DNA of 62,758 bases, filler included, from Stramenopiles sp. TOSAG23-2 (Eukaryota), in the NCBI GenBank assembly GCA_900128395.1. It is 15 parts of 15 records of this genome, joined end to end, with 100 filler letters (N's around TTAATTAATTAA, not from the genome) between each part and the next. Parts side by side here need not be neighbours in the genome. Positions count along the whole stretch, not along the records: positions 55,639 to 60,150 come from LT650876.1; 14 more parts are not named here. One strand, given 5' to 3'. A program made the position numbers and the translations under genes. The notes below the pieces were generated by a model, which was not told the DNA's origin, did not search any database, and saw nothing but the letters and a program-made list of their open reading frames with translations. Shown here piece after piece: positions 11,702 through 60,250 of the stretch; positions within the stretch are counted from its first letter, which is position 1, and the number at the start of each line of letters is the position of its first letter.

Positions 11702-13841
11702 TTAATAATCGTAAACTGACACCGTGTCCTGATCCTTGTGTACTTCCTCCTCCTTATCATCAACATCCAAAAAATATAAAAGCTGTAAAAATACCAGAAT
11801 AAAAAATTCAAAGATTTCTTCTATATTATTGCTAGTAGTATTAACTTTTAATGTTACATAATCAACCATCCCATCTCTCATTTCCTTTGCAGCCCTGCGT
11901 CTACGTCTTAATACTCTTGCTTTTTCACTATCTTCATCATCTGAGGAATCACTACCATCTTCACCTAAATCTTTAGATGCATCAATTAACTTCGTTGCTC
12001 GCTCACGTTCGATAACTTGTAAAACAAGCAAGCGGTCTAACTCTCGTTCAAGATCGGCTCTTAAGACATCAACTGGAAATTTTTGAGGAACGGAATGCAT
12101 GACGGCTGATTTCATATGATCCTGTGCACACATATACGCAAGGTCTAACTCNNNNNNNNNNNNNNNNNNNNNNNNNNNNNNNNNNNNNNNNNNNNNNNNN
12201 NNNNNNNNNGATCAATGTCTAGATCGATTGGAGTTGCTACAACATCATGATTAATCAACGGTCCCGGTTTCCCTCTACGGTCGTATGACGTCGAGCCTAA
12301 ATGAATTGGAGGTGGCTTGTACTTTTGCAAAATTTGAACAACACGTTGAAGTCGTTCATCCAGTGTCTCAATATGCTTAGGATCCTTTTCACATTTCTTC
12401 ATTAATACTTGCAATTCATATTGTTTGACGGTTAAATCAGGAGGCTTTTCATACTTGAACCAATGTTCATCAGTCTTTGATAAACCATGGGTATCTTGCT
12501 CATATTGAATTTGAGATTCTAATATAGCTTTTGGGGTTGGTCCAAGTACAACTACATGGTGTTCGCCAGTAACATCACGGCCTAAATGTACTTTACCCCC
12601 TGTGCCCGTATTCACATCTTCCTCTTCTTTTTTGCGCTCATCCTTCATAATTATATCATCACCAACAATCATTTTATGAACTTCAGCGGATGCATCATGC
12701 TTCAACCCGGGATTCATTGCATGACCTTGATCACCAGTGCCTACGATTGAATCGACTCCCGCCCATTTATCAGCTTTGTAAACACTTGGATACCAAGTTG
12801 GATGCAACACATGGTCGTACACTAGGAATTCTTTCTCCTCGGAAGTTAATCGTTTCGCATGTTTGCCCCCTTTGAATACTTTATCACGTATATCTTGGCC
12901 ATGATCAGGGCCAATATTTGCTAAACTGCGATCGTGATATTTATTTATTAACTTTCTAATTTTTGCTTCTTTAACAGTTAAATCATCGACACTAGCCTTC
13001 ATTATTCGAAGGATATCATCTCTAGAAACATCGGCAACAAACCTTTTCTTTCGTTCTTTCTTTTTCCCTTTGGAATTTTTTTTCCCATTTTTCATCCGTT
13101 GCAATTGTGATTCGTCTGAATCGATACTTTCGTCACCACTTTTCTCTTCGTCTTCATCTTCTTCATCCTCCTCCTCAGTTTCTGATTCACCGGAGCTATA
13201 TTCCTCCCAATCAAACGGATTATAGACTCTGTCATAAGCCACCCAACGATATTCTTCCTCGGTTATTTTACCAAAACCTGCCTTCGGGTAATGCTGTGCC
13301 TTTCTTCTTAACTTTTGTGCAGGAGTTAACATATGACTTAAAGCTGCAACTTCCAATTTTGCCCTTCCTCCCATATTAGCATGTAGGTGATCAGAAGGTA
13401 CGAAACGTGCATTGATTTTACCGGCAAATTCAGCAGCAGCGGACAAACTGATAGCGCTAGCAGTGCCTTTAGGTAAATATCGACGTTGGAATCCCAGAAA
13501 TTCATCTATAACCTTTAATTCGTCTTCGCGATCCCGTTTTAATTCCGCCATGCGTACTAATCCGTCCATAATATCACGCAATTCCTGTTTCCTCGTCATA
13601 GCTTTTTTCACCGCTCCACTAAATTCAAGTTCTTTGCGACCAATTGCCATATCTATTTCTTTCACTTCATCTTCCGTTAACCCATCATTATTTTCGTCAA
13701 ACTCCAAACTCTTATTTAAAGTGTCAATTTGTCCTTGTATTTTTTCACACTCTTCTTCTGCATCAGCAATTAAACCTTCGACCAACTTGTATTTACGCTC
13801 ACTCAGGCGAATACTCATTAATAAATCATACAGCTCCTGTT
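11702..13841 (-). CDS. Large hypothetical coiled-coil protein, 5'-partial, spanning an internal N-gap (12152-12209)
   Basis: 557-aa and 143-aa ORFs either side of a scaffold gap; coiled-coil, acidic and basic tracts; repeated EE-x-W/F-x-x-YD-x-V-x-x-P-x-x-W/Y motif. Confidence 0.65.
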
Positions 13842-13941
13842 NNNNNNNNNNNNNNNNNNNNNNNNNNNNNNNNNNNNNNNNNNNNTTAATTAATTAANNN
13901 NNNNNNNNNNNNNNNNNNNNNNNNNNNNNNNNNNNNNNNNN

Positions 13942-16900
13942 TTTAAATACGTATGTTTTGCAGATTTTAATGTATCCAAAAAGTTTCTTTTGCGCATAAA
14001 CGTTGAAGATAATTTCCAGGAATAATTCATCCGTGTTATTTCGGTCAAATTATTGTCTTCCGCTACGTCGTTTTTTTTTCCTGTTACATTATTGGTTATA
14101 AACACTTTCTCTCCACGATATATATCTTTTCGCATAACCAATAATACTATGTCCATTATTACCATTAAAATTTTTGATGGTTTCTTTGTCGTACGCAGTT
14201 GGACTAGAAGTTCAGAAGAAATATCATAAATAGCTTGTGTTGCTGTTTTAAAGTGTTTGATTATTTCTTGTAAGCTTTTGTCTAAAAAATGGAACTTTTC
14301 TTTTAGTTCGTTGCTTTTTTCATTGAAATGCTCTTGCATGGATACTAGATTGTCTTTGTTCAAATTAAAAATTTTTGCCTTTTGCTTCCATTCTTTCTGC
14401 TGCTTCACCAAGAGTGATTTTTTCTTGTTTGTATCACTGTACATTGTTACCATGGTTTTGCTTGCCTTTTTTACGAAGTTTTCCACTTTTGCAATTTCTT
14501 CAATTGCTAATGATGTTTCCTTCAGAGCTTTTGCTAGTTCACTAGATCTTTGAGTATATAAAAATTCAAAAAGTTTCAAAGCGTTTAGGAATGTTCTGGT
14601 ACTATATTGTGAACACACATTGCTATTTTTTGACAATTGAAGTTTTGAATAGGAAATATGTGCATCTGCTATGTAAGACAATACTTTATTTTGGTTGTTT
14701 GCTTCAAAAAATGGTACATAGTTCCTACCAATCTCTTTGTACATTTCATGTGACCAGTTTCTTATGTAGAAATTTTCAAACTTGTCTTTAATGTTCCCAT
14801 ACTTTACAAGAAGCCCCGACTCTTCTAAATAGCTCGGTGTCACAGATGAAATGACTTTAAAATTACGCTGAAATTTTTGAGTAATCACTTGATGCGTTTT
14901 AACTGGTTCAAATGCCACATTTTCCCATCCTAGTAACACATGTGCTTCATTTAAAGTGTATAGCTCAAAGTCGTGTTTGAACGATGATAAAACATTTATA
15001 TATTTCCAAATTAATTTTTGATGTTGCTTGTTGAGATTAGAACAGTATCTATGAGATACAATTAAACAAATTTTTTTGTCATCAACAACGACTTTTCTCC
15101 ATATTGATCTGAATTCATTGGTTATCATCTCTGTTGTATAATTTATCGTTAAATATACATTCGGTTGAAATATATACTCTAAATAACCCACATTAAAAGC
15201 TGCTATGCGAGAGCAAAGGTGTTTCCCAACTCCTCGCTCCCCAACAACAAGAGCATGCCTTCCTGGAGTTAATATTGTACGGGAAAGCCACTTAATACTC
15301 TTCTTTGAAACTTTGATCATAATCATACTCCGTAGAACGATACAACATTACCCTTTCGCATTCATGAACCCATAACTTAGTTAACTGATCTTTTGATTCT
15401 ATCTTAGTCGCGTTTGATTCAAACATCCCCGTCACAACACGAATCATCTCACGATGTGTAAATTTAAATTTAATGATATCTGATAACTTATCGCATAAAT
15501 CGACAGTTGCATCGACAAAGTCATGACCAGCAGATAAATCTTTGTCTTTTTTATACCAGTCACGTATAGGAATTTTATATTCCCTAGCCTGAAAATTTAA
15601 AATTTCCTGCAATATAGCGGCACTATTCCTTTTGGAAACATCATCAATAGTAACACATCCAAGCTTTGATAAATATCGATATGATATTTCATTATCGGTA
15701 TCGAAGGGACGATTTGCAAGTGTTGCAAGGCATGACATCTTCTTGTATTGATTGATTTCACTTTTCTTAGTAAAATTATATAGTCCACCTAAGTGGTTAC
15801 ATTGTCTTAAAAGATCGAGAACAGGTATAACACCATAGGAATCACGTTCTGCAAAGTGCATATCGTCAAGTAGTATAAAAATCTTTCTTGCTTTCGGTTT
15901 AAAAATATTATACATAACTTTTTCCATAGAAGCTTCCATTACAAGTTGGACCACATTGCATTGCAATTGTGGCGATACATATATTTCATGAAATGTTGCA
16001 TCTTTCTCATAGATTTTCATAGATTTTATTAACATTGTTTTTCCTACCCCCTCAGGCCCTGATAATAGTGAATATTTTCCCATATCAGAATAATGTGAAA
16101 TCATTTCAATCACACTTTGTGTCGTCGAAGTCGGAACAAATAACGTATCTCCATTTGAAATTACCGGCTGTTTGATAAGATCCTCCCATTGCACCCATAC
16201 AAACTTTTCTTCCGTATTTTTAAATAGGATTGTATATGAATATAAAGAGATTTCCTTGTTATTATAATTCCCTATTGGCAGTTTCATTGGAGAAGTTAAA
16301 GTTGCCGAGTTTGCTTCAATCATTGAAGAAAAAATGTTCCGATTTTCTGTATCTAATACCCCACCAAAACCATATGTAAGAGAATATAGTATAATTTTAT
16401 CCCAGCAATCATAGTAGCCATCATTACATTCTGGTACCTCTGCGCATTTAAGATAAATTAAAAGAGAATCAAAAAGCGCAAGTGAATTTCGCATTAATTC
16501 AAGCATTCGATTTGGGTTGGAACTGTTATCAATTGTTACAAATGCACTGACATGTATTGGCATGTAAGACATCAACCTTTCTCTAATATAGTTTAAATGG
16601 AGTTTCTTTCTTTGCATTGAATTGGCATCTTCAGCTACGTTAAATAGGATTGAAGTATTATTAATTTTATTCTTAATCCATTGCTTGATGTAAATTTCAG
16701 ATGAGATAACTGGTTTATATGCAAGTGATAGCTTCAAAACACCAACTCGAGAAACAAAAGCAGGAGATTCATATGAAAGAGAATCTGTCTCAAATAAAAA
16801 TTTTATACTGTTCCTAGGCACATTTAAAGATTCCCCCGAAGATAAAGGTAGAGTGTTGCTATCCAAGAGCGGATACAAGCTTTCAGGCCATTTTGGGTTG

Positions 16901-18482
16901 ACACAAGCATCAAAAATTATCCATGTGTATCCATCTCGACATTTACTTAGTCGAATAGCATTTTTAATGACGGCAGATAATAATCCTTCTTCCTCGTTAC
17001 GACCTTCTATGTTGTTATTTGAAGGATTCCCATACAAATCAGCAATTGATGTCGAATCTGGAAAAATTCGATAAGAAGAGCTTTTTGGTAGATTTTTGCG
17101 AAGACGAAGGTTTTCAATAAATGCATTCGCAACTGACGATTTACCCGTATCAGGCTCTCCTAGAATTACTGTTCCTTTATGCTCTTCCGATAAAAATTCT
17201 AATGTGTTAAGTTTCTGTTTAAGATTATCTGTATAATACATCTGCAAGCAGCGCAGAGACTCGTCCATTTTTTGTTCGTTCATTGTATGTTTAAACACGT
17301 CATAGACTTTTATGTCATAAGGTGCCATTGTTAAAGATGACAAAAAATTTTGTAAGGCAGCGAAATCTCTGTCCATCGAATTGCTTTGGATCATTTCAAA
17401 AAACGCTTTAAACATAGAGTGTATTTCATTTTTCTTTGCATTTTCCGCGCTTTTATTATCTGATGCGGCGACCTTGCCACGATACTTTTCATCATAGTGT
17501 CGTTTACCACGTCTTACTAAACCCAGTATATTACCCAACTTAAAATTAAGATACTCGCTGCAACTAGAACTTCTTTCCATAAAATTATATAAACTGGTAA
17601 ATATTATAGAAATTGTTGTATAGTTTTGAAATCCTACCATTAATAAGTAAGTTTGAAGAATAATCTTTTTATGAGGCTGAATCATAGTAAAAGGTCGAAA
17701 AAGTCGCCTTACATGTGAAGGGTATGTTTTTCTGTCTATTTGAGTCAACGATGAAGACATAACGGCGAAAATAGCCCCGTTTGGGTTAAAATTCATAACT
17801 TGTAATTCACCATCAATCTTATGACTGCTTTTTTTTGCCTGCCTTGCTGTTAAAAAATTGTGAGTAATGTTGGAATAAGTCGTTATTAAACCACTATGCA
17901 GTAAATTGAAATCATCAAAAACGATCCAGTTACCCTTTATAGCTAAACCATGCATAGTTTTGATTATTTGTTCTGCTGTAACAGTAGCAGTACATTTAAA
18001 CTCATGCATCTTTCGCCCACAAATTTGAGCCAAGCTCTTTAAACTTTCTGTTTTTCCAATTCCTGCACTACCAAATAGAGAACCGACTGAATTCAACTTT
18101 AATGCTTGAAACATCGAAAAATAACACTTTTCTAATAGTGGCGTAATAACTAAAGTGGATAAATTTCCATTGTAATTAAACTCGTAACTTTCCTTTAATC
18201 CAAATATAGATACTTGAAGCGGGTATTCCCCTGTTTTGAAATTTGTGTCAACTAATGAATTGTTGCTATTATCAATAATCTTCTTTTCCATAGCTATCTC
18301 AAACCTTTCGGCATTGTCAAAAGACCAGTAATATCTATGATGTTTCTGCCATTCAAATGATGTCTCTGTATGGAAACCGATACCATTGCCTACTTCTTGA
18401 AATACATCACGCTGATGCAAATGAGCCAGTAACAAGATTTCACCCTTCACATTTTCGGTCTTATTGCCAGTGACACTATGGT
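13942..18482 (-). CDS. Highly divergent dynein heavy chain fragment (AAA1-AAA4, stalk, MTBD), frame break at about 15292-15326
   Basis: LVITPLLEKCY, AAA1 GSAGIGKTES/WIVFDDFN/LFRPFTM, AAA2 GEPDTGKS/WIIFD, AAA3 GPEGVGKT/LLDDMHF..DSYG..LDLLRQ, LWVHECERV, AAA4 HALVVGERGVGK, stalk coiled coil, MTBD-like LRTTKKPSKILMVIMDIV and SWKLSSTFM..NFL. Both ends are cut by contig edges. Confidence 0.88.
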
Positions 18483-19328: not shown

Positions 19329-22283
19329 TTAACAAAAATCTAATAAAAATTTTAAATCATGTGGTAATAGCTTTTTATTATTGAGATCTTTGCATGCTTT
19401 TTTAAACACTTCTATATTATCGGCATGTTCTAACGATTGTGCTTTGTGCAAGTTTAACTCCAATAATAGTGATTCCTTTTCGCTTACCAGGGCATCATAA
19501 TGTGCCAAAGACAACAAGTCTTTCTTCAAACTCGACAACTGTCGACGCAATGCATTTCTCTCTGTAATTAATTTGTTGTTATTATATTGAATAGCCTTGT
19601 TTTCTTCAGAGACGGTGTCTAATTTAGTAACTATGTCTTCAGTCTTCATATTTGCTTGGCCGAGTAATTTTTTATTGTCCCTTTGCTCTTTTATTAACAA
19701 TATGTTTGCTTCACTTAATTGATTTTGTATTACTGACAATTGCTTAGTAAAATTCTTTTCTTTAGCATGAGATTCAAGTCTCAATTGTTTTAATTGTTCT
19801 TTAAGCACATCATTATCACGAAGTATTTTTTTGTGTGTTGAAGTAAGTTCACCTACTAGGCGTTGGTGACGGCTTTCTGTGGCACTAGCTTGAAACTTTT
19901 CTTCTTCCCATGAATTCTTTAATTTCTTAATTGTTAAGTCGAGATCTATTTCTTTCAATTTGTGCAATTTTAGCTTCTCTTTTGCTATACTTGCATCTTT
20001 CATTAATTGTGCCAAACGCTCATCTTTATATAACATATCAATACCATAATTACCATTATTATCATTAACCTTGGAAGAATTTTTTTTCTTTTTGTTGATA
20101 ACCTCTTGATTATTTTTCTTATTAAATGAGTCTCCCATTTCGTCTGTAGCAACAATAGAAGGACTTTGTATTTCGCTTATTGTATCTTCTTTTTTCTCAT
20201 TAATTAATATAGATTTATCTTCTTCGTCGTTATATACACCATTATTGAATTCACTGCCAACACTCTTTGTGCTTAATGATACAGCAGTATCGTCATCTGA
20301 GAAATTATCTTTCAAGGATAAATTGTTGATCTTCCCCTTTAATTGGGCAACTTCTAATACCAAGTCATTTTTTGAAGCATCTGCGATATCAAATGACGCA
20401 CTTAAAACTTCCAATTTTTCATTTAAAGTTTCGACTTTATCTTTTTCGTTTATATATAAACGTTTGACTTCATCTGTCGCAAGATAAGAAATGTCTAATT
20501 CCATTTTTAATGATTGATTGATACTCATTACTCTCTGTAAATTTGATTCTAGCGATTTGACGAAGATGAATTGCTCAATTTCAGCGTCATTATAATTGTA
20601 CGTTAAACCATTGATTTCAACACTATTTCCACTCGTATTAGGAATATCTATCATCAATCTATTCTCTTTATTGCCAATCATTGTAAAATTATTATCATCA
20701 GTATTATTCATTTTGTCACTCGAATTCAATGATTGTGTATAGATCTCCGGCTCCTCGGATGGCATTAATAAGCGAATCAAAGACCTCAATGACTCAACTA
20801 TAATATCCCTTTGAATGTTACTCTTACAAATGATAGTGAAATTCGTTTTATCCCACGCCCAATTTGTAGCTTTTACAGGGTTTAATGCAGTATTTGTATT
20901 TGAACCATTGCAAAATATCAATTGCAATTTTGTGGAAGTTGTGGAATCATATATCACGCAGAAATGTTCTCCGTTTGTAGGGTAAATGTATTTTTTTTTC
21001 TTTGCTGAAACACTTGTAGAAGTATCACCGTTGGTAAGTTGTATAATCAATGATAGACAATCCCTCAAGTCGAACTCTAAATGACAATTTTCGTTATTGA
21101 GAGATTTAATTCCATGAAATGTGCAATATTTTGATTTGACATTATTAACAACTGTAGTTTGTATAGATGTATCTTCTTTTATGGTATATTTCGTTTTTAA
21201 CCATAAAATTCTTCTCTCGTCATCCCCGGTATCGTAATGAGCAGGAATTATTTTTGATTTTGTTATTTCAATACATTTTACACATATTTGGTAACCAATA
21301 TCAGAAAAGTTTGGTTGGTAAGTATAACTTGCACAACCTTCAATTTGCTTAAATTTTTCTTTATCGTTTAAAGCATTTATCCACCATTCAAACTTGAAAT
21401 ATTTCTTAATGTCCCTACTGACCGGAATATTATTGCAACTAATTGATATTTGTGTAGTATGATATTCGTTATTGCTAAATAAGTCTAATTGATCTTTTAA
21501 ATATTCATTTGCCTCAAGTTTACCGTATGCTAGATGATTATTGCAAATATCTTCATCTTTACAGTTGTCTATGGAAATCAGCTTATTGCCCTGTTGCATC
21601 CCTTGTCGATGTTGCGGCGATGTCTCCGGTGTTGTAGTCAGCGAGGATGCTATTGCAGCTTTAGAAATTAAATTTGAACCCCAGCTTCCAATAAAATTGA
21701 ATGCAGCGACTGAATCTTCCACTATTGTTGAGGCAGACGGTCTTCTCCCATTAGGTGATGTGCTATTTCTCGTCTGAGATTCGCCTACTTCAAACTCTTT
21801 CATTCTTTTAAATGAAATTGTCACTTTTGCGCGTCCTATTAATAATGATGAGACTTCTTTTAATGAAAGACCTTTTGTATGCATGTTATTAATCGCCGTT
21901 ATTGTATCACCAATTTCGATACACGACGATGTTTCCGCAGGACCTTTAGTGCCATCTATATTTTTTGGAAATGATAAAACTACTATATCACCTTTTGATT
22001 TATTTGTGCCTAATTTTATTCCAAACCCATCAATCCCACGCTTTAAAGTGCATTGATAATCGTACATATTTTCACCACCCATATATTTATTTCTATTATC
22101 ATTATCATTACCATTATTATAGATATTATTATTATTATTACTATTATTATTATTATTACTATTATTACTATTATTATTATTATTACTATTATTACTATTG
22201 TTATTACTATTCTTACTATTATTACTTAGTGATACCAAATCAATGTCCACATTCATTTTCAATTTATTTTGTTTTGGATCCAT
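19329..22283 (-). CDS. PDZ + Ig-like (AIR9/SCAB-type) + PH-like + coiled-coil protein with poly-Asn
   Basis: PDZ motif LKRGIDGFGIKLG...IEIGDTITAINN...VTISFKR; FEWW...IEGCASYTYQPNFSDIGYQICVKC (A9/SCAB Ig-like); long C-terminal heptads. First ATG at 22283 (the ORF-track start at 22352 is GTG). Confidence 0.75.
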   Translation of the reverse strand: MDPKQNKLKMNVDIDLVSLSNNSKNSNNNSNNSNNNNNSNNSNNNNNSNNNNNIYNNGNDNDNRNKYMGGENMYDYQCTLKRGIDGFGIKLGTNKSKGDIVVLSFPKNIDGTKGPAETSSCIEIGDTITAINNMHTKGLSLKEVSSLLIGRAKVTISFKRMKEFEVGESQTRNSTSPNGRRPSASTIVEDSVAAFNFIGSWGSNLISKAAIASSLTTTPETSPQHRQGMQQGNKLISIDNCKDEDICNNHLAYGKLEANEYLKDQLDLFSNNEYHTTQISISCNNIPVSRDIKKYFKFEWWINALNDKEKFKQIEGCASYTYQPNFSDIGYQICVKCIEITKSKIIPAHYDTGDDERRILWLKTKYTIKEDTSIQTTVVNNVKSKYCTFHGIKSLNNENCHLEFDLRDCLSLIIQLTNGDTSTSVSAKKKKYIYPTNGEHFCVIYDSTTSTKLQLIFCNGSNTNTALNPVKATNWAWDKTNFTIICKSNIQRDIIVESLRSLIRLLMPSEEPEIYTQSLNSSDKMNNTDDNNFTMIGNKENRLMIDIPNTSGNSVEINGLTYNYNDAEIEQFIFVKSLESNLQRVMSINQSLKMELDISYLATDEVKRLYINEKDKVETLNEKLEVLSASFDIADASKNDLVLEVAQLKGKINNLSLKDNFSDDDTAVSLSTKSVGSEFNNGVYNDEEDKSILINEKKEDTISEIQSPSIVATDEMGDSFNKKNNQEVINKKKKNSSKVNDNNGNYGIDMLYKDERLAQLMKDASIAKEKLKLHKLKEIDLDLTIKKLKNSWEEEKFQASATESRHQRLVGELTSTHKKILRDNDVLKEQLKQLRLESHAKEKNFTKQLSVIQNQLSEANILLIKEQRDNKKLLGQANMKTEDIVTKLDTVSEENKAIQYNNNKLITERNALRRQLSSLKKDLLSLAHYDALVSEKESLLLELNLHKAQSLEHADNIEVFKKACKDLNNKKLLPHDLKFLLDFC
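22100..22225. repeat. (ATT/ACT)n trinucleotide microsatellite encoding poly-Asn/Ser
   Basis: Seen directly; in frame in the PDZ protein as NNNSNNSNNNN. Confidence 0.9.
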
Positions 22284-23221
22284 TTCTGAATGTTCGTAGA
22301 AAGGGGTGCAAGTTTTGATGATGGTATTTATTGGTGATGGTGATGTGACCACTCTCTTTCAATTGACAGCGTTTTAGTTAATTTTCCATAAATTATTATT
22401 CAATAAAATAAAAACAAATTAAATAGCTATATATTTTTAATTGAATTATTAAGTTAATTATTATTAGAAGAAATTTTTGTTGTGAGTAGTAGGTGTGCCA
22501 GTACAGTAGTGTGCTGGTGTGCTAGTCTGCGTCGTCTGACGACTCTTTCCGTATGCAAGAGGTGTAGTGTAAATGTATCCGCTCCTCATTTGTCATACCA
22601 GGTTAAGGTATATTTCGACTTGCACAAAATGCACAAAATTTACAGAGAAATTTATGAAAACGGACACAATCTATTTTTGCTGAGAGATTTAAGTTTTTTT
22701 TAATACCAGGTATGGACACAGCATTGTGAAAATCTCCTTTTCTTCTTCATCAGGATGATAAAAAATATAAATGTGACATTATTATATATTATATAGACTA
22801 TGTATATCGATATATATATCCAACCAAACATATGATATATATATACAGAGAAAGAGATATATGTTTGAGTCAATATGATGCTCTAATATCGTCTCACCAT
22901 TATTATATATAAATATATATTATTATAAATACATATCCTCTTCTAATATTTATTTCACCCGATGTGTGTTTTACAAAGAATAATGTGTTTATTATAAAAT
23001 ATATTCCATATTGTTGTGATGTGATGTGTGTGATGTGGTGTGCCAGGTGTGTGCCTGTTGCTCTTTGAGTGTAGTGCAGCGGAATCCTGAAAAATATCCT
23101 TAATCCCCAAGCTCACTTGGGNNNNNNNNNNNNNNNNNNNNNNNNNNNNNNNNNNNNNNNNNNNNTTAATTAATTAANNNNNNNNNNNNNNNNNNNNNNN
23201 NNNNNNNNNNNNNNNNNNNNN

Positions 23222-51038: not shown

Positions 51039-52180
51039 TTATTTCTTTTTCGTACTCCCATCGACGATATCCATTTCATCAACCCAACTACTTGAACCAT
51101 CTTCTGCAATACTATTCTCCATTAATGTTTCCACTACAGATGTTGATGAATCGCCTAATTTTAATAATGTTTGTTTTGCTGCTGTATCACCTGCATCCAA
51201 CTCCTCTTCGTGTTTAATAAGTAAATTTTCACCACGAAATTTCTTCTTACTTTTACTGCGTTTTCGTGGACTGTAAGATCGATATTTTTTATTTCGACGA
51301 CGACGTAATTTGGGTGACTTGCTTCTTCCTCGTCTTCTACTTTTTCCTTTTCTAGATGGTGACAATGAAGCTTTGCCTTTCCTTCCTTTCTTCTTTCTTT
51401 TCCTCTTCTTCTTCTTCTTTCTTTTCTTCTTTTTCTTTTTTAATTCATCATCGGATGATTCCTCATCATCATCATCTATTTTTGGATCGACATAGCCTAA
51501 TAAAAAAGTTTTTAAAGCAAGTGCGAGTCTTTCCTCATAAGATTCTCCTAATCTTTCCAATTTTTTTAATCGCTCCTCCAATTTCTTTTTCTTTTGCTTT
51601 TTTGTTAATGGCTTCAATATAAGAATTTCACCGTTTAATCTTTTCTTCTTTTTCTTTTTTAATTCATCATCGGATGATTCCTCATCATCATCATCTCTTT
51701 ATCCAATTCATCTTCAATATTAGTATCTTGATCCTTTCTTTCCGCTTCCATTTTGTTTTGCGCTTCGAATTTTACTTCTTGCTCTTTAAAATATTGTATA
51801 ATTTCCTTTAAGCATGCCGGTGTAGCTAGATGTATTGGCAGCTGCTCATTGATATCTCTACTGTACAAAGAATTTAATGGTTCATTTAATAATACCTTGG
51901 TAATTTCAACATGATTAAAAAGACATGCTATATGCAATGATGTCCTTAAATTTGCATCTTTTGCATTTGGATCTGATCTGAAATCCATTTCATCGCCATG
52001 TTTATATTCTGCATCGTCACCATCGTCAAAAAAAACGTTGTCTGATTCTAAATATTCATCCAAATATTTTTTATGTCTACGTAAAAACCATTTCAAAGTT
52101 TCATAGTCACCAACATATGCCGCTGTTCTAATTGTGTAGGAGGGTACATCCGATATTGGATTTGGGTCATCTTCCATCAT
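51039..52180 (-). CDS. Ankyrin-repeat protein with an acidic/basic low-complexity tail, frameshifted near 51697
   Basis: IRTAAYVGDYETLKWFL, DPNAKDANLRTSLHIACLFNHVEITKVLL, EQLPIHLA. After EDELDK the other frame reads DDDDEESSDDELKKKKKKRLNGEILILKPL into ORF 51039-51617. Confidence 0.7.
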
Positions 52181-52749: not shown

Positions 52750-54620
52750 ATGGATCAAGTTAAAATTACGAACCGCTTTACGGAATTTGTATGGAGTCCT
52801 GATTTTCCACCAAAAGAAATTGAAGATGATGATAATAAAATCGAAGAGTGGTATAAAAAAGTATTTTTGAAAGTTAAAATTAAAAAACCTGACAATACAT
52901 TAACAGAACGTGAAAAGTATATCTATACATTAAATGTGAATGGATACGTGAAAGAACGGCGTGATGGAAAAATTACATGTGAAGAGTATGCTTCTGCATT
53001 AGTAAAACGTGCACTATATTACAGGTATATGAATCAATGGACATACCGAAGTTATAATTTATTTGATAAAGTGATTAAGAAAGCTAAAGAAATGGATGAA
53101 AAGGCAGCAAAAAATGGCATTGAAAGTATTGGTCCATTATATGGTTTGTTAGTGCCTATGAAAGGAACTGCTGCTGTTGTCGATTATCCTTCTGGATCTG
53201 GCGTTGGGATATTGTCGGGCTATACGCCAGTCAGAGATAGTGATATGACAACATTAATCAAAAAGAAAAATGGAATCATTTTTGGCACTACGAACGTTCC
53301 TGAATTTGCGTATGGTTATAGAACGGCTAATCCAGCTTCTGGACAATGCCGAAACCCATATAATCATCGTTACACTGTTGGTGGTAGTTCGGGAGGTGCT
53401 GCATCTGCAGTTGCATCCTATCACTGTGCCATAGCAATATCAGAAGATACAGGTGGTTCAACCAGAGTTCCAGCAACTTGTAGCCAAAATTATGGATTTG
53501 ACCCTTCCAGAAATCATTATCCGAACGCCGGCAATCCTGGATTATCATACCTATGTGATCAAATTGGACTTAATGCTAGAACGTACGTAAAATTTTATTC
53601 CCCTAAACCTAAAAAGGATATCCTTTCGTCTAACACATCACTCATTCATACGCTACGCTCCACAGCATTGATGATATTATACTTTTTGATCATGCTGTAA
53701 TAAATGACAAAGCAGCTGCTATGCATGCAATTGAAGAAAAAAACGTTGCCTCTCGGTCTGCCTCGTCAATAAGAATTGGATCTCCAATATATCCATTTGT
53801 GGTTCGTCATCATACTGACATTAATCAAGATGTTCGCGAAAAATTAGAACTTGCAAAGAGAACATTACATTTGGGTGGATTTACAATGTTGCAAAATGCT
53901 GAATGGCCAATGGGTAAAAAAGATGACATTTTCTCTGAAGCATTAGATGAATCTGGACCTTTGCTAGGTACAATGACACGAACTGCCTTGTCACAAATGG
54001 CTCAATTTGTTCATGAATATTTGGATGCCCCAGTTTCCACGAAAGAGATCATTGAGCACATTGGAAAAGCTGGAGCTAATCATAATCCAGCTGGAGGTTT
54101 TAAAAATGCAGCCAAAAATGGTTTTGATGAAACAAAATTGAGACAGTTGATGGGACCGCACATTCCTAAATTAGTCGAGACGTATAATTCCTATTTTGAT
54201 CTTCATAATGTAGATTTAATATTGATTCCATCTGCACGTGCAGCAACACCAGATCTAGACTTATTATCGAATGGTAAAGTTGTGTTGACCTCAACTGGTG
54301 GTGGCAGTGCCAAAGGTGGTGATAGTTCTGTCTTTGGTGGTATCAATTTTGTGGTGAAACATTTACATATTCCGAAAATGTGTATACCAACTGGATTAAC
54401 GGAAGATGGGAGACCGACAGCTGTCCAGCTATGGGGTCGTGCAATGGAATATGATCAAATGTATGACGATAATTTATCACAAATGAACGATGTAAAATTT
54501 TTACATCTTGTAAACAGAGTTAGTCAAGTTCTTGCTGCAAATCCAAAATTAAGAAGGAAAAATGCCAGTCATTTTTTTAACCACCTTGTGAATTATAATA
54601 ATGGTGATAGTAATTTGTAG
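52750..54620 (+). CDS. Amidase-signature family enzyme; exons 52750-53582 and 53666-54620, intron 53583-53665
   Basis: GPLYGLLVPMK (Lys), TNVPEFA, RNPYN...GGSSGGAASAVA, EDTGGSTRVPA (Ser-cisSer-Lys triad). AC|GTACGT...CACAG|C splices to ARTIDDIILFD; C-terminal IPTGL..GRPTAVQLWG. Confidence 0.92.
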
Positions 54621-54990: not shown

Positions 54991-55538
54991 TTATTCATCA
55001 TAGTCCTCGAAACCTAATACTTCATTAGAAAATGTTAATGGACCAATTGAACCACCTATATCTTCAATTCCATCACCTAACAGACTTTGTAAACAACTAT
55101 CTAATTCATCTTTGGACATTTGCTCACCTTCATCTTGCAATAAATTTTGCAATGCATTCCAACTAACTGCAGGTCCATCGCCATCCATACCACCACGTCT
55201 ACCTAATTTATCAGCTAAAACTTCAAACGCTTCTTGTATTTGCTGTTTGCCAACACCATATACTGGTCTATGATTTACATATAATTTTAAGAAATCATCA
55301 AAACCGATTTCTTCCTGCGTAGTTCCGTCTTCTAAGAAACGTGCATATTTAACCTCACCAACCATATTTTCAATTTCTTTTTCAGATGGATAATAACCTA
55401 GTGCGCGCATTAAATTAGGTATTTCATCCAATGGTACACCATTCTCCGTCGTCCTTCGCTCCGTTGCCTGTTCACCTTGTGCTCTAATTTGCGCATAATA
55501 GAAAAAATCTATCATATCTTGATAAAATTCACCATTAC
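54991..55538 (-). CDS. CFAP251: CFAP251/WDR66 C-terminal EF-hand region (radial spoke/CSC protein), 5'-partial
   Basis: FFYYAQIRAQGE, PLDEIPNLMRALGYYPSEKEIENMVGEVKY, FLKLYVNHRPVYG, LQDEGEQMS, EVLGF. Confidence 0.88.
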
Positions 55539-56099
55539 NNNNNNNNNNNNNNNNNNNNNNNNNNNNNNNNNNNNNNNNNNNNTTAATTAATTAANNNNNN
55601 NNNNNNNNNNNNNNNNNNNNNNNNNNNNNNNNNNNNNNTATGCTCTTTTTCTCTTCCTCTCTGGACAGCCCCAATGCACTCTAATGCAGGGGAAAGATGA
55701 TTATTATTTTTATTTTTTTAAAAATTTTTTTGGATTTTTTTTTTGATGATGATGATACTTGGTATATTTTGTTCTGTAAAAATAGTATACAATAATAATA
55801 TAGATAATACTATATTTACCTATATAATAATATATATTAAATGTGCAATAAATGGGGATAAATAAAGAATTTTTATTAAATTAAATTAATTAATAAAAAA
55901 AAGCAATTTTATATTTTTAATTACAACTACTATAGCACTATACTCCAAAAAAACAAAAACGAAACCAAAAAAACGAAATGCAACAAATGCTTCTTCTTCT
56001 CCATTATAAATATAAATTGAATTAAAAAAAGTTTTAAAAAGTATTCATAGCATGCTGTATTTCATTTTTTTTTAATAATACAAAAACTGTGTAACAATA

Positions 56100-57803
56100 A
56101 TGGCAAATGTTCTTGTGAATAATCATCCATCTCATACTACTACTACTACTACTAATAATAATAATAGTAACAATAATAATTTTCCAATATTGAATGTATT
56201 AAATGTTGAAATTGGTGCACGCGTTATTAAAAATAAACAAGGGTGGCAGGAAAACTGGGGTAGAAAGTCAAATCATCCACCAGACGAAGGTGAAGGAACT
56301 GTTGTCGGTTGGACCGACTCTTTCTCTACCATATTTGGTGATCCTGAAGTTGGAGAGTTTTCCGAAATTGTAAGAGTCAAGTTTGATAATGAAAAACATT
56401 GTTATAATTATCGTATAGGATTTGCAAATGAGTTTTGGTTACAATTAGTATCTGGAGGTACTATACGAAAGAAAAAATGTTTTGGTGATGATTTGCATAA
56501 TGAAGCATGTACTGGATGTTTTTATAAATCTTTAAAGATAGAAGATATGAATGGACAAGAGGTAAATTTTATTGCCACGCCAGCATCAGAGAAAGAAATG
56601 TCATTTGAACCAAAATTACAAGTATTTTGGAGATTACATGCAGGTGATGTTGAAAGTGTACAAAAGTTATTAAGTGAAAATTCTTCAGAAATCAATATTG
56701 ATGAAGGAATTTTACCATACTTGTTTCAATCAAAGGATAGTAAAACACTTCGTTGGCCATATTTCGAATTTGATGGAGTATATGGAGATACTCTATTATC
56801 ATTAGCCACAAGATATTGCCATGTAGAAATGATATCTATGTTACTTTCAAATGGTGCTAGTAAACAAGTAAAAAATAAAGATGGCGAAACAGTAGTTGAT
56901 ATTGCTACTAAAATTATAGCAGATTCATCTTGTATTTGTGTAAAACTATTTAGTTCTGAACATTTCACTCCGATCTTCTGTAAATTATTTCAATTAGAAA
57001 GGGGGGGGAATGGGAAAAAATCAATACAAAATGCAATACGTGATAATAAAAACCAATTGCTTTGCCATCCAGCTTTTGATGTATCTACATGTTATGTTGA
57101 TAATAAAAGTGTAAATAGAAAAATTTCTTGGATTTTAATTAATGGTCATTCTGATAAAGAACAAATAGAGTATTGCCAATCCATGATGGATGCATGGGAG
57201 TCTGTTTTGATAAAACGGGGGGATCATATAGCAGAAATTCTTACCTGTCCAACAAAAGCCAACTTAAGCTTATCTTTGACACAACATTTTAAAACATACG
57301 CTAATACGCCAACGGGAATTTTTGTTATAGCACATGGTGGCTCTAAAGAGGGAGAATGGGTTTCATTTAATCCAGACAACGAAAATGAATCTTTTTCATG
57401 GAAAGATATTGTATCAGCAGGTGCATTAGAATATCCATCACAACTTGTTCTTGTAGCTGATACTTGTTATTCTGCTCGTTTAGGGAAAATAGCTTTTGAA
57501 GATTTATTGGAAAAACAGATGGAAAATAAAATGGTAAATTTGCCTTCGTTTTGTATGTTAAGTGCAAGTGATTTACCTGAAAAAAATTTCAGCATTTCAT
57601 TTGCTTTGAATCAATTTCAAAAACATCGCATGCTTAGCAAAGAAACATGTGATAGATTTATATCTAACAATTGTTTCATTGCTATTGCAGAAAATATTGT
57701 GTGCATCGAGACAAATGATTTTAATCCATATTTATATTTATTTGTTCCATTGTCTGTATTGCTTCAGATGTCAGAAAATGCGCAACCAATTTTTACATTG
57801 TGA
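56100..57803 (+). CDS. Mib-Herc2 + ankyrin + caspase-fold (clan CD, His-Cys dyad) protein
   Basis: IGARVIKN..GW..NWG...EGTVVGW...VRVKFDN...NYRIG (Mib-Herc2); GDTLLSLATRYCHVEMISMLLSNGA...NKDGETVVDIA (ANK); FVIAHGG (His412) and LVLVADTCYSA (Cys456). Confidence 0.75.
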   Translation: MANVLVNNHPSHTTTTTTNNNNSNNNNFPILNVLNVEIGARVIKNKQGWQENWGRKSNHPPDEGEGTVVGWTDSFSTIFGDPEVGEFSEIVRVKFDNEKHCYNYRIGFANEFWLQLVSGGTIRKKKCFGDDLHNEACTGCFYKSLKIEDMNGQEVNFIATPASEKEMSFEPKLQVFWRLHAGDVESVQKLLSENSSEINIDEGILPYLFQSKDSKTLRWPYFEFDGVYGDTLLSLATRYCHVEMISMLLSNGASKQVKNKDGETVVDIATKIIADSSCICVKLFSSEHFTPIFCKLFQLERGGNGKKSIQNAIRDNKNQLLCHPAFDVSTCYVDNKSVNRKISWILINGHSDKEQIEYCQSMMDAWESVLIKRGDHIAEILTCPTKANLSLSLTQHFKTYANTPTGIFVIAHGGSKEGEWVSFNPDNENESFSWKDIVSAGALEYPSQLVLVADTCYSARLGKIAFEDLLEKQMENKMVNLPSFCMLSASDLPEKNFSISFALNQFQKHRMLSKETCDRFISNNCFIAIAENIVCIETNDFNPYLYLFVPLSVLLQMSENAQPIFTL

Positions 57804-58002
57804 AAATGTGGTCGCGGCTAAATTTCTTATAAATTAAAATATTAAAGATATATATACGAAGTATTAAATACGAAGAGCGTATAAAATACGCACTCACTTT
57901 TGTTGACACACAATTATTTACACTCTGTATCTTTTTTTGTACATATTTCTTCTTCTTATGTCGATGATGATAAATACATAATTTTGATAAAGCTTTTCTC
58001 TC

Positions 58003-58665
58003 TCACCAATGTCGATGATGTGACCAAGATATAGAATCATTATTGTTATTATTATCAACATCTTTGTCTCCTTCCTCTTGATTTTTTCTGCGTGTTGCAT
58101 TAATATACCTACCGTGGTATGCTACTAAAGCATTTAAAGGCACATGTTCTGTTTCAACTGGTATGACATAAGAGGACGCCTGCCCATCATTATTATCATT
58201 CTTTGAAGAACCTATTACATATTGTGATGATGTAACCTTATTATTTCTTTCAGCAGCAGCTTCATCCTCATCATATACTATGCCACGATATTTTTCTAAA
58301 AGATCTTTAAACGACTTTGTTGCATTGTATTTTGTATCACCATTCTCAATGTTGTTATCATGATTTAATAATGATATCGTAATATTATTTGGTAATACTC
58401 CGTCCCAATGCTCATTTTTACTACCATTTTCCTTCCATGGCAATATATGAAACACTAAGCCTTCATATTCGCCAAAATTAATATACCGAACAGTCAGGCC
58501 TAAATGTTTGAATTCAGTGGAATTATTGATTTCATCAAGCACTTTACATAATGTATGTATTTTGTCTACTAAAACATTTAAATATGAAGCTTTTGCACCT
58601 ACTTTTATTTCAGCATCAAATGATTGCAGATGCTTTTCGATTACATCTTGAATATTTTTAAACAA
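58003..58665 (-). CDS. Hypothetical protein (true start unclear)
   Basis: 220-aa ORF with protein-like composition. The frame is open about 25 codons upstream of the TTG but has no in-frame ATG, so an upstream exon or an indel is needed. Confidence 0.5.
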   Translation of the reverse strand: MFKNIQDVIEKHLQSFDAEIKVGAKASYLNVLVDKIHTLCKVLDEINNSTEFKHLGLTVRYINFGEYEGLVFHILPWKENGSKNEHWDGVLPNNITISLLNHDNNIENGDTKYNATKSFKDLLEKYRGIVYDEDEAAAERNNKVTSSQYVIGSSKNDNNDGQASSYVIPVETEHVPLNALVAYHGRYINATRRKNQEEGDKDVDNNNNNDSISWSHHRHW

Positions 58666-59616
58666 TTCAAAATGTTGTCTTACTAAAACAGGAACTTGAC
58701 TTTTAGTTTTGACATATCTATGTACTTTATCCTTTCTTTAAAGCTGGCATATATATATATAGATATAGATATTGTAATTAATACTATGTGATCGATATAT
58801 ATTATCTTTATCTTTCATGCCCTGGTATTAAAGACGGTATGTACAATATATGCATACACACGATGTAAGGCATTACATTTATATTTTTTCCATATTAAAT
58901 ATATATATTTTGCCCAAATATGGCTAAAAAATATGACATATACCGTATACCCGTATACTCGGTGTTATCCGTTCTCACCCTATCAAATGACCATAATTTA
59001 TACTTGAATATCGAAATTAGAATATAACTCAACCAAATCTGTGATCTGTGATACGGATTTGGGTCGAAAATCCTCTCGCCTCTTCTCTCGCTACCATTGG
59101 GACCACACATTTTTCTGTTTTGTTATTTTGTCATAATACATGTAGCTTTACAAGTTTTCGGATACATGACTATTATTTTGTATACACATGTATAAAGGAT
59201 CAGCTCTCGTCATCATCTATTCTCACTTCATTTTACCAGGAGTACCAGGAGTACCAGGTACTATTATATTTCCCGTTGATTTATTATATTAAAATATTGG
59301 ATAGGTGCATAGCTATAGCTACTATTTCAACTATACATCATTGACTTTTCTCATAAAAAGTTGTTTTGGGTTGTTGTATTCAAATAGCATGGACATATCA
59401 TTGTTTATATCTTTTTTTCTTCTCTAATTCCGAGCTTATTTTACATGTAACACGTAACACAAAACCACACACACATAGATACCATACACATACATGTGTA
59501 ACAATCCTTTTAAAAAAAAAAAACAATTTGTATTACATTTGAAACAATCTGTATAATATATATTCATTAAATTAACAACAAAAATAACAGACAAGTTGAA
59601 CATACCAAACAAAAAC

Positions 59617-60150
59617 ATGACTACTACAAACCAAGTAAAAACTGATTTTACAATACCAACTCAAAATGCATTGAATGCGTCACCAGCGGGAAATGAATGG
59701 AAACTGGATATGGAAGAATCGATCCTATTTGGTGGTGAACCATATATGTTTAATCCACCAAATTGCAAAGAACATTGTTTTATGCATATTTGCTGCTGGA
59801 AACAATGGGGGAAATATGAAGCAAAAGGCGGGAAACAGCTCGTATATTACAACAACTGCACAGTTGGGCCACCATGTTGTATTGGATCTTGGCATGTTAA
59901 ATTGAGAAATAATGGTGACACAAATGTTCTCGGTTATACCACAGGCATGACGCCTGGGCAAGGTTGCATGGCAGCATGTTGCCCATGCGGAGATAAAATT
60001 ATTCAAAATTTCTTTGATGGAAAAGGCAATCGCCTTTACACTTTACGAAAAAAAGTAACATGTGCAAATTGTTTATGTGTAAAATGTACAGGTTGTGGTG
60101 TATGTTGTGCTAGTTGTTCGGATGCATTGGCATGGTGCTCTAATGGAAGA
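59617..60150 (+). CDS. Cys-rich phospholipid-scramblase/tubby-C-like protein, 3'-partial
   Basis: ATG at 59617. CCPC and CxxC clusters plus NFFDGKGNRLYTLRK resemble the scramblase/LURP beta-barrel pattern; cut by contig end. Confidence 0.45.
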
Positions 60151-60250
60151 NNNNNNNNNNNNNNNNNNNNNNNNNNNNNNNNNNNNNNNNNNNNTTAATT
60201 AATTAANNNNNNNNNNNNNNNNNNNNNNNNNNNNNNNNNNNNNNNNNNNN

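Follow-up and report, generated by a model that had tools for sequence, protein, structure and literature searches.

Animals, plants and fungi use caspase-fold proteases to control cell death, immune responses and signalling, and the caspase-fold repertoire of free-living protists is known mainly through matches to Pfam C14. Metacaspases, whose Cys motif is of the D-x-C-x-S type, occur in protists and algae. Here we present a gene of Stramenopiles sp. TOSAG23-2 (assembly GCA_900128395.1), located at positions 56100..57803 (+ strand) of a stretch of 62,758 nucleotides. This stretch, referred to as the window, consists of 15 parts of 15 records of the genome joined end to end with filler letters; the gene lies in the part taken from LT650876.1 (positions 55,639 to 60,150). 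Its product combines a probable Mib-Herc2-like barrel and ankyrin repeats with a C-terminal domain modelled in the caspase-hemoglobinase fold, and shares the D-x-C-x-S type motif with the metacaspases.

The best structural match of the C-terminal domain is the paracaspase MALT1 (MEROPS C14B), at a structure-based identity of only 8-10%. MALT1 resembles the window protein in being a single chain, in lacking a pair of inserted strands between strands 4 and 5, in the acidic residue two positions before the catalytic Cys (Cys-2; Asp462 in MALT1 according to the available part of PMC4357240, Asp454 in the window protein) and in carrying non-catalytic interaction domains N-terminal to the protease. 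Unlike MALT1, the window protein has no Pfam death domain, Ig domains or Peptidase_C14 match and carries the barrel and ankyrin head instead; its model also has an extra strand after strand 6 (aa, amino acids, 544-549). A MALT1_Ig match in one orthologue (E 0.12) was taken as chance.

Metacaspases of types I-III (C14B) have the fold in common with the window protein (AtMC4 Z 12.6, AtMC9 12.3, Yca1 12.2, TbMCA2 10.7), and the basic P1 residue predicted for the window protein is a further likeness to them. They possess two extra strands between core strands 4 and 5, which gives an eight-stranded sheet (PMC4357240, in excerpt), whereas the model of the window protein lacks this insert and its sequence has no PF00656 match. 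Among the caspases (C14A), residues 40-275 of caspase-3 align to model residues 18-247 with Z 13.9 and with agreeing positions of the His-Gly and the Cys. The Arg/Gln/Arg of the caspase S1 pocket (PMC4357240, in excerpt) contrasts with residues of opposite charge predicted here, Asp352/Asp454/Glu494. The window protein also differs from caspases in having neither CARD nor DED, and no conserved inter-subunit Asp site was identified. Legumain and GPI8 (C13) and the caspase-like domains of CHAT proteins and Raptor have the same fold with Z 11-12.7, below the best matches, but the window protein has no Pfam match to them, no secretory or membrane features and none of their flanking domains.

The head finds its counterpart among ubiquitin ligases. 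Mind bomb 1 (MIB1) and HECTD1 combine a Mib-Herc2 barrel with ankyrin repeats, as the window protein probably does, but the E3 ligases MIB1, HERC2 and HECTD1 have RING or HECT where the window protein has the caspase-fold domain. Titles of PDB entries report complexes of the MIB1 MZM-REP with a Jagged1 peptide and of HERC2 with NCOA4, and therefore these modules of MIB1 and HERC2 bind partners.

The gene belongs to a small, previously unnamed family whose members are not detected by the Pfam Peptidase_C14 model. We consider it fairly probable that the product is an active clan CD cysteine peptidase of a new, Pfam-invisible family, and that a conserved partner in the cell is recruited by its head, the likewise conserved Mib-Herc2-like and ankyrin part. 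It would be a soluble single-chain cysteine peptidase of the caspase-hemoglobinase fold, in which barrel and ankyrin repeats may act as protein- or peptide-binding modules, by analogy with those of the Mind bomb, HERC2 and HECTD1 ligases. The head, placed where caspases carry a CARD or DED prodomain and MALT1 its death and Ig domains, would hold the partner, and the protease domain would make a site-specific cut in this partner or in a protein attached to it. Besides recruiting the substrate, the head could possibly restrain the enzyme. The features of the gene are as follows, with pLDDT standing for the predicted local distance difference test score.

56100..57803, + strand: whole gene, uninterrupted open reading frame (ORF), 567 aa; RNA-library contigs colinear without joints.
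56100..56180, + strand, preceding 56181: N-terminus, aa 1-27, low-complexity poly-Thr/Asn, unconserved; pLDDT <50; a repeat, skipped in contig placement.
56181..56474, + strand: Mib-Herc2-like five-strand beta-barrel (probable), aa 28-125; sub-threshold PF06701, BLASTP to the homologue P0009, Foldseek to HECTD1.
56475..56615, + strand: linker 1, aa 126-172, partly conserved (34-51% identity); cysteines unconserved.
56616..56969, + strand: ankyrin repeat region, aa 173-290, about two repeats and a cap; PF00023 and alignments to ankyrin structures.
56970..57116, + strand: linker 2, aa 291-339, least conserved stretch (27-36% identity); pLDDT <50 at model residues 1-17.
57117..57800, + strand: predicted caspase-hemoglobinase-fold (clan CD-like) domain, aa 340-567; AlphaFold model, Foldseek, VIA and ESM.
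57333..57335, + strand: codon of His412, putative catalytic His, followed by invariant Gly413; two residues past strand 405-410.
57459..57467, + strand: Asp454-Thr455-Cys456, holding the putative catalytic Cys and, at Cys-2, an acidic residue; past strand 449-453.
57564..57593, + strand: loop A-S-D-L-P-E-K-N-F-S, aa 489-498, predicted L5 substrate-binding loop, after strand 484-488; role suggested by PMC4357240 (in excerpt).

The single uninterrupted ORF starts with ATG and, stop codon included, encodes 567 aa. Positions 57315-57479 translate to GIFVIAHGG...LVLVADTCYSAR. The initial annotation, made from the sequence, had placed the ORF at 56100..57803 with the codon of His412 starting at nucleotide 57333 and that of Cys456 at nucleotide 57465, 44 residues apart, and translation reproduces each of these values exactly. 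The sequence is present in 20 of the 24 listed public runs, which stem from 12 studies and are all marine or seawater samples; six are recorded as RNA. Contigs of all four RNA libraries compared (three studies, two polyA or oligo-dT) are colinear with the window on 56096-57776 and differ from the gene by a few synonymous-looking changes. These contigs, which run without a joint, suggest that the gene is transcribed and lacks introns. The contigs do not define the transcript ends, and none of the four runs gave an RNA-library contig on the flanks 55873-56054 and 57784-57965. One contig of X15, which touches 56472-56489 and 57113-57133 with 10 other letters between, was taken as unrelated, its matches being only 18-21 bases long.

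For the C-terminal domain, AlphaFold was run on aa 320-567 from an alignment of five sequences (A2); the best model reached pLDDT 76.7 and a predicted template-modelling score of 0.81. Foldseek against the PDB returned 93 matches at E <= 0.001, with caspase-11 first (E 5.4e-6), and the matches displayed were all caspases (including caspase-4), MALT1, GSU0716, metacaspases or Raptor. When the model was compared by VIA-align with 48,161 representative chains, ranks 1-30 were all caspase folds, from Z 13.7 down to 8.3; the first other fold came at rank 31 (Z 8.3). Rank 1 was MALT1 (3v4o_A, Z 13.7, root-mean-square deviation (rmsd) 3.6, 183 residues aligned), and the list included caspase-8 (13.4), caspase-9 (12.9), GPI transamidase K (12.7), metacaspases 4 and 9 (12.6 and 12.3) and, further down, legumain (11.9), SAVED-CHAT (11.3) and gingipain (8.7). 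On Foldseek's own list VIA gave MALT1 7pav_B Z 14.1 (rmsd 3.5, 181 residues aligned), with caspase-3 and caspase-7 both at 13.9. The alignment covers model residues 18-247, the whole of p20 and p10. By ESM features, 25 of the 30 nearest clusters carry Peptidase_C14, with a best score of 0.96.

Along the chain, the model consists of strand 343-348, helix, strand 376-382, helix, strand 405-410, two short strands and a helix, then strand 449-453, helix 458-475, strand 484-488, two helices and strands 527-532 and 544-549. The model thereby shows the alpha/beta sandwich of the clan CD caspase-hemoglobinase fold, the fold proposed in the initial annotation. Only helix 458-475 is predicted between the fourth and fifth core strands (449-453 and 484-488), and the missing two-strand insert would make the domain caspase-, paracaspase- or legumain-like in build rather than of the eight-stranded metacaspase type.

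The C13-type matches raise the question of chemistry. A transpeptidase or peptide ligase like GPI8/PIGK or the C13 asparaginyl ligases would attach the bound partner to another molecule instead of cutting it, and 7w72_K (GPI transamidase subunit K, Z 12.7), the OaAEP1 ligase (12.0) and legumain (11.9) lie within about 2 Z units of the best match, while one ESM cluster carries both C14 and C13. We hold this to be very unlikely: MALT1 and the caspases outscore matches of this type in each of the two VIA searches, Pfam Peptidase_C13 is not matched, no signal peptide or membrane segment is evident by eye, and the mean hydropathy of the ORF is negative.

Conservation of the active site was counted in a family alignment of 16 rows, whose identity to the window protein falls from 59% to 23%. 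His412 and Gly413 are each kept in 16/16 rows. Cys456 is kept in 15/15 (one row is truncated and was left out), as are Asp454 at Cys-2, Ser490, Asn496 and Arg510. Asp352 is found in all 11 rows with a residue at that position; position 494 is Glu in 11/15 and Gln in the other four, and position 497 is aromatic in 15/15. The third core strand is predicted at 405-410 and the fourth at 449-453; His412 stands two residues past the former and Cys456 three residues past the latter. The His and Cys motifs are not chance, since they are placed at predicted strand ends and both residues are invariant. In clan CD the catalytic His lies where core strand 3 ends and the neighbouring Gly is conserved (PMC4357240, in excerpt). 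In the model, too, core strand 3 leads at its C-terminal end into the His and its conserved Gly, and core strand 4 leads at its C-terminal end into the Cys. The His/Cys pair recognised in the initial annotation thus occupies canonical strand ends in the model and is retained in every homologue that covers those columns.

The same counts bear on whether the domain is an enzyme at all. It could be a non-catalytic scaffold of caspase fold like Raptor or c-FLIP, binding partners with a His and Cys that are structural or metal-binding; the structural matches include Raptor (Z 11.2 and 10.7) and c-FLIP (Z 11.8), and no sequence profile of an active family matches the domain. Caspase-fold pseudo-enzymes such as pseudo-orthocaspases have typically lost the dyad (PMC6426788, in the part available), whereas here His412-Gly413 (16/16) and Asp454-x-Cys456 (15/15) are invariant in rows down to 23% identity and the whole predicted L5 substrate loop is conserved as well. 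A pseudo-enzyme scaffold is quite unlikely because the dyad is invariant.

The P1 preference of clan CD peptidases is governed by L1/alpha1, L4 and L5, and the S1 residues are Arg87/Gln184/Arg233 in caspase-7 and Asp365/Asp462/Glu500 in MALT1 (PMC4357240, in excerpt). In the window protein the three positions that set P1 appear to be acidic in the model, namely Asp352 (L1/alpha1), Asp454 (Cys-2, L4) and Glu494 or Asp491 (L5). From these acidic S1 positions, which resemble those of MALT1, cleavage after Arg or Lys is predicted.

In the head, the ankyrin repeat named in the initial annotation is matched by Pfam PF00023 at residues 228-260 (E 9.5e-5, 23.0 bits, above the cut-off of 21.1), and HMMER alignments to ankyrin structures also take in the preceding repeat, from about residue 176. 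Ank families are matched in all six orthologues, and a conserved insert P-Y-x-F-P...W-P-Y lies between the repeats. PADLOC gave a single match, of the ankyrin region to PDC-M72A (E 0.0021), which is uninformative.

The Mib-Herc2 assignment of the initial annotation stands as probable, by way of P0009, Foldseek and VIA, although PF06701 (MIB_HERC2) matches the window protein below threshold (residues 64-117, E 0.16, 12.3 bits, cut-off 33.5). The same model gives E 1e-6 (28.9 bits) in the homologue P0009, 0.012 in P0011 and 0.81 in P0056, and barrel copy 1 of P0009 matches window residues 28-128 by BLASTP at E 7e-13. The best two Foldseek rows for the barrel model are the HECTD1 Mib-Herc2 domain (E 0.026 and 0.038, 27-28% identity), and the three nearest ESM clusters all belong to PF06701 (0.88-0.90). 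By VIA, HERC2 comes top (Z 6.3) and MIB1 reaches 5.6-5.7, both level with unrelated barrels. Among solved structures, the barrel profile (A4) retrieved streptavidin and tricorn (E 0.03-0.6) and no MIB or HERC2 entry; against the longer lengths of 5.8 billion proteins it found seven matches, all of its own family, and no canonical Mib-Herc2 protein. The alignments used for the C-terminal domain and the barrel are shallow (5 and 4 rows). The first module is probably a remote Mib-Herc2 domain. Pfam gave no RING or HECT domain at E <= 10 in the window protein and its orthologues. A zinc finger in linker 1 was considered and rejected, the cysteines being unconserved.

Compared with four orthologues, the barrel is 59-61% identical, the ankyrin region 49-63% and the protease domain 54-65%; the linkers reach 27-51%, and the protein therefore consists of three conserved modules. 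With a head no less conserved than the protease domain, a single gene copy in the window and no death-fold, NACHT or TIR module detected by Pfam, the pattern agrees more with a conserved partner in the cell than with a diversifying sensor. This bears on the role suggested in the initial annotation, a ligand- or substrate-gated caspase-like protease that could be an effector of protist immunity or regulated cell death. In this role the protein would be a danger- or ligand-gated executioner whose head senses a pathogen or stress signal and releases the protease. Such a role has parallels in the interaction modules N-terminal to the caspase-fold domain of initiator caspases, MALT1 and type I metacaspases, and ankyrin repeats are listed as possible sensor repeats of immune proteins (PMC8195603, in excerpt) and named as NLR repeats (PMC12881547, in excerpt). 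It is nevertheless unlikely: the head is conserved like the catalytic domain (59-61% against 54-65%), the window holds one copy and no paralogue (tblastn next best E 0.65), and the family is tiny and not expanded (21 matches in 1.84 billion). In addition, neither the family members nor the flanking ORFs have a death-fold, TIR, NACHT or pore-forming partner by Pfam, and scans with two short peptide patterns revealed no relatives in viral contigs or prokaryote genomes.

A word-seeded search of 5.8 billion proteins returned five relatives, with 99, 60, 51, 51 and 48% identity. In 1.84 billion representatives, the profile of the C-terminal domain (A2) matched 21 proteins with E <= 0.001. Two of the 21 were judged spurious, being long repeat proteins with many short matching stretches (best 32 profile positions); P0021 carries HYR_4C repeats and P0026 is 5,670 aa long. 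The family comes from marine plankton assemblies, EukProt entries and, as one named organism, Chromera velia, and pattern scans located it at five metagenome loci. Two short peptide patterns gave no relatives in viral contigs and prokaryote genomes, which is weak evidence of absence. The C. velia protein Cvel_5567 (P0013, UniRef100_A0A0G4H1S4, 'Uncharacterized protein') matches the C-terminal profile at E 1.8e-32, keeps the His, Cys and Asp and sits on a very long branch of the domain tree (2.65); no mention of it was found in the literature searched. It has the same C-terminal domain as the window protein but differs from it in the head, with two ankyrin modules and no Mib-Herc2-like barrel.

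The domain tree contains two clades with 100/100 support each, a long-form clade of 11 rows and a short-form clade of four. The head is modular in the family: P0009 has a tandem pair of Mib-Herc2-like barrels (43% identical, E 1.2e-21), P0013 the two ankyrin modules without a barrel, and the short-form clade (P0015, P0017, P0018 and P0023) neither barrel nor ankyrin; the NGHSD motif after strand 1 is also absent from the short forms. A zinc finger remnant of ZZ type seen by eye at the N-termini of the short forms P0007 and P0015 was dropped, as Pfam gave no ZZ match at E <= 10. The combination of Mib-Herc2-like barrel, ankyrin repeats and caspase-fold domain, which the initial annotation did not know as described, was not found in the literature searched (titles and beginnings of abstracts, outside subscription journals).

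Several results weigh against an active clan CD peptidase with a Mib-Herc2-like head. Pfam C14 (PF00656), C13 and CHAT give no match at E <= 10 in any of the six orthologues and none at E <= 0.1 in 13 further members; for PF00656 five more members have none at E <= 10, and in the last ~230 aa of the window protein Pfam finds nothing. The A2 profile against PDB sequences retrieved interleukin-22 alone (E 0.6), the whole-protein search against solved structures returned only ankyrin proteins, and a broader 13-row profile (A5), in which N-terminal columns were retained, was swamped by ankyrin matches. Pfam and PDB profile searches thus provide no sequence-level bridge from the domain to any known peptidase family. 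Only one of the five AlphaFold models is confident (76.7 against 58.1, 58.0, 51.0 and 42.8), from the alignment of five sequences, and both the adjacency of His412 and Cys456 and the S1 assignments would follow from position relative to predicted strands. The short-form clade lacks the L1 motif NGHSD, and Glu494 is replaced by Gln in 4/15 rows, so that the acidic S1 pocket is not universal in the family. For the barrel, the MIB_HERC2 match stays under the Pfam cut-off in every member (best 28.9 bits against 33.5), and the five-strand model is poor (pLDDT 59.2), its structural matches tying with generic SH3-like barrels. As to transcription, RNA-library contigs can contain DNA.

A more specific version, for which our confidence is low, is that of a 'degron-directed protease', in which an E3-type recognition head is coupled to a caspase-fold peptidase instead of RING or HECT, and the target is cut rather than ubiquitinated. 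The recognised feature would perhaps be a cytoplasmic tail or a specific motif. On this account the proteins would found a new clan CD family in a few marine protist lineages and chromerids.

The window is AT-rich, with a G+C content of 0.26-0.43 per 2 kb, and encodes ordinary eukaryotic nuclear genes: dynein heavy-chain pieces, an AFG1-like ATPase, a succinyl-CoA ligase beta subunit, a Wntless-like protein, an XK-related/LRR protein, and TPR, ankyrin and amidase genes. An Rfam scan of the window found no RNA family. The sequences closest to the succinyl-CoA ligase beta subunit are marine (100-82% identity), and the matches from named organisms, at 56-63%, are scattered over eukaryotes. The gene is single-copy within the window; the next best tblastn match has E 0.65 and is no paralogue. 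A small separate ankyrin-repeat protein (51659-52180, - strand, Ank_2 E 3.4e-8) lies 4 kb upstream and by tblastn has no similarity to the 567-aa protein beyond the repeat.

The upstream neighbour (54991-55515, - strand) encodes an acidic protein of 174 aa that looks EF-hand-like by eye and has no Pfam match at E <= 0.001. On the contig of the orthologue P0004 (L002 2172-3422, + strand) the downstream gene has three ubiquitin-interacting-motif-like motifs, as judged by eye; the neighbourhood is not conserved, because the downstream gene of the window is a different one (58003-58665, - strand). In the low-complexity part of the latter, at window position 58251, RNA-library contigs show in-frame deletions of 3 bases (X18) or 6 bases (X15), which makes the length of this part polymorphic among populations.

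Dynein heavy-chain motor regions (AAA_6, AAA_7, AAA_8 and AAA lid) extend over 13890-18450 (- strand) in the ORFs 13890-15326 and 15292-18450, and the long ORFs 12145-13818 and 19329-22352 have no Pfam match; all this is probably a single, very large dynein gene that introns or frame changes interrupt. An amidase (PF01425, E 4.6e-46) is apparently split at 52750-54620 (+ strand). Its ORF 52750-53700 corresponds to profile positions 24-195 of 445, and the ORF 53721-54620, which begins 21 bases past it, has no match at E <= 0.001; possible causes are a short intron, a stop codon or divergence of the C-terminal half. A Cys-rich ORF (59596-60198) enters the N stretch at ~60150-60198, recorded as an assembly gap inside the gene.

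The family escapes the C14 profiles and yet retains a complete active-site signature, and surveys of plankton for 'metacaspases' will therefore have missed it. A head built of modules otherwise typical of ubiquitin ligases offers a concrete, testable instance in which recognition modules are put to new use with another effector chemistry. With a culturable member, C. velia (Cvel_5567), and a small family, the biochemistry, comprising P1 specificity, partner and activation, is tractable. If the proteins prove inactive or ordinary, a divergent clan CD family is added to the catalogues; if the degron-directed reading is true, they would represent a new coupling of recognition to irreversible signalling in protists.

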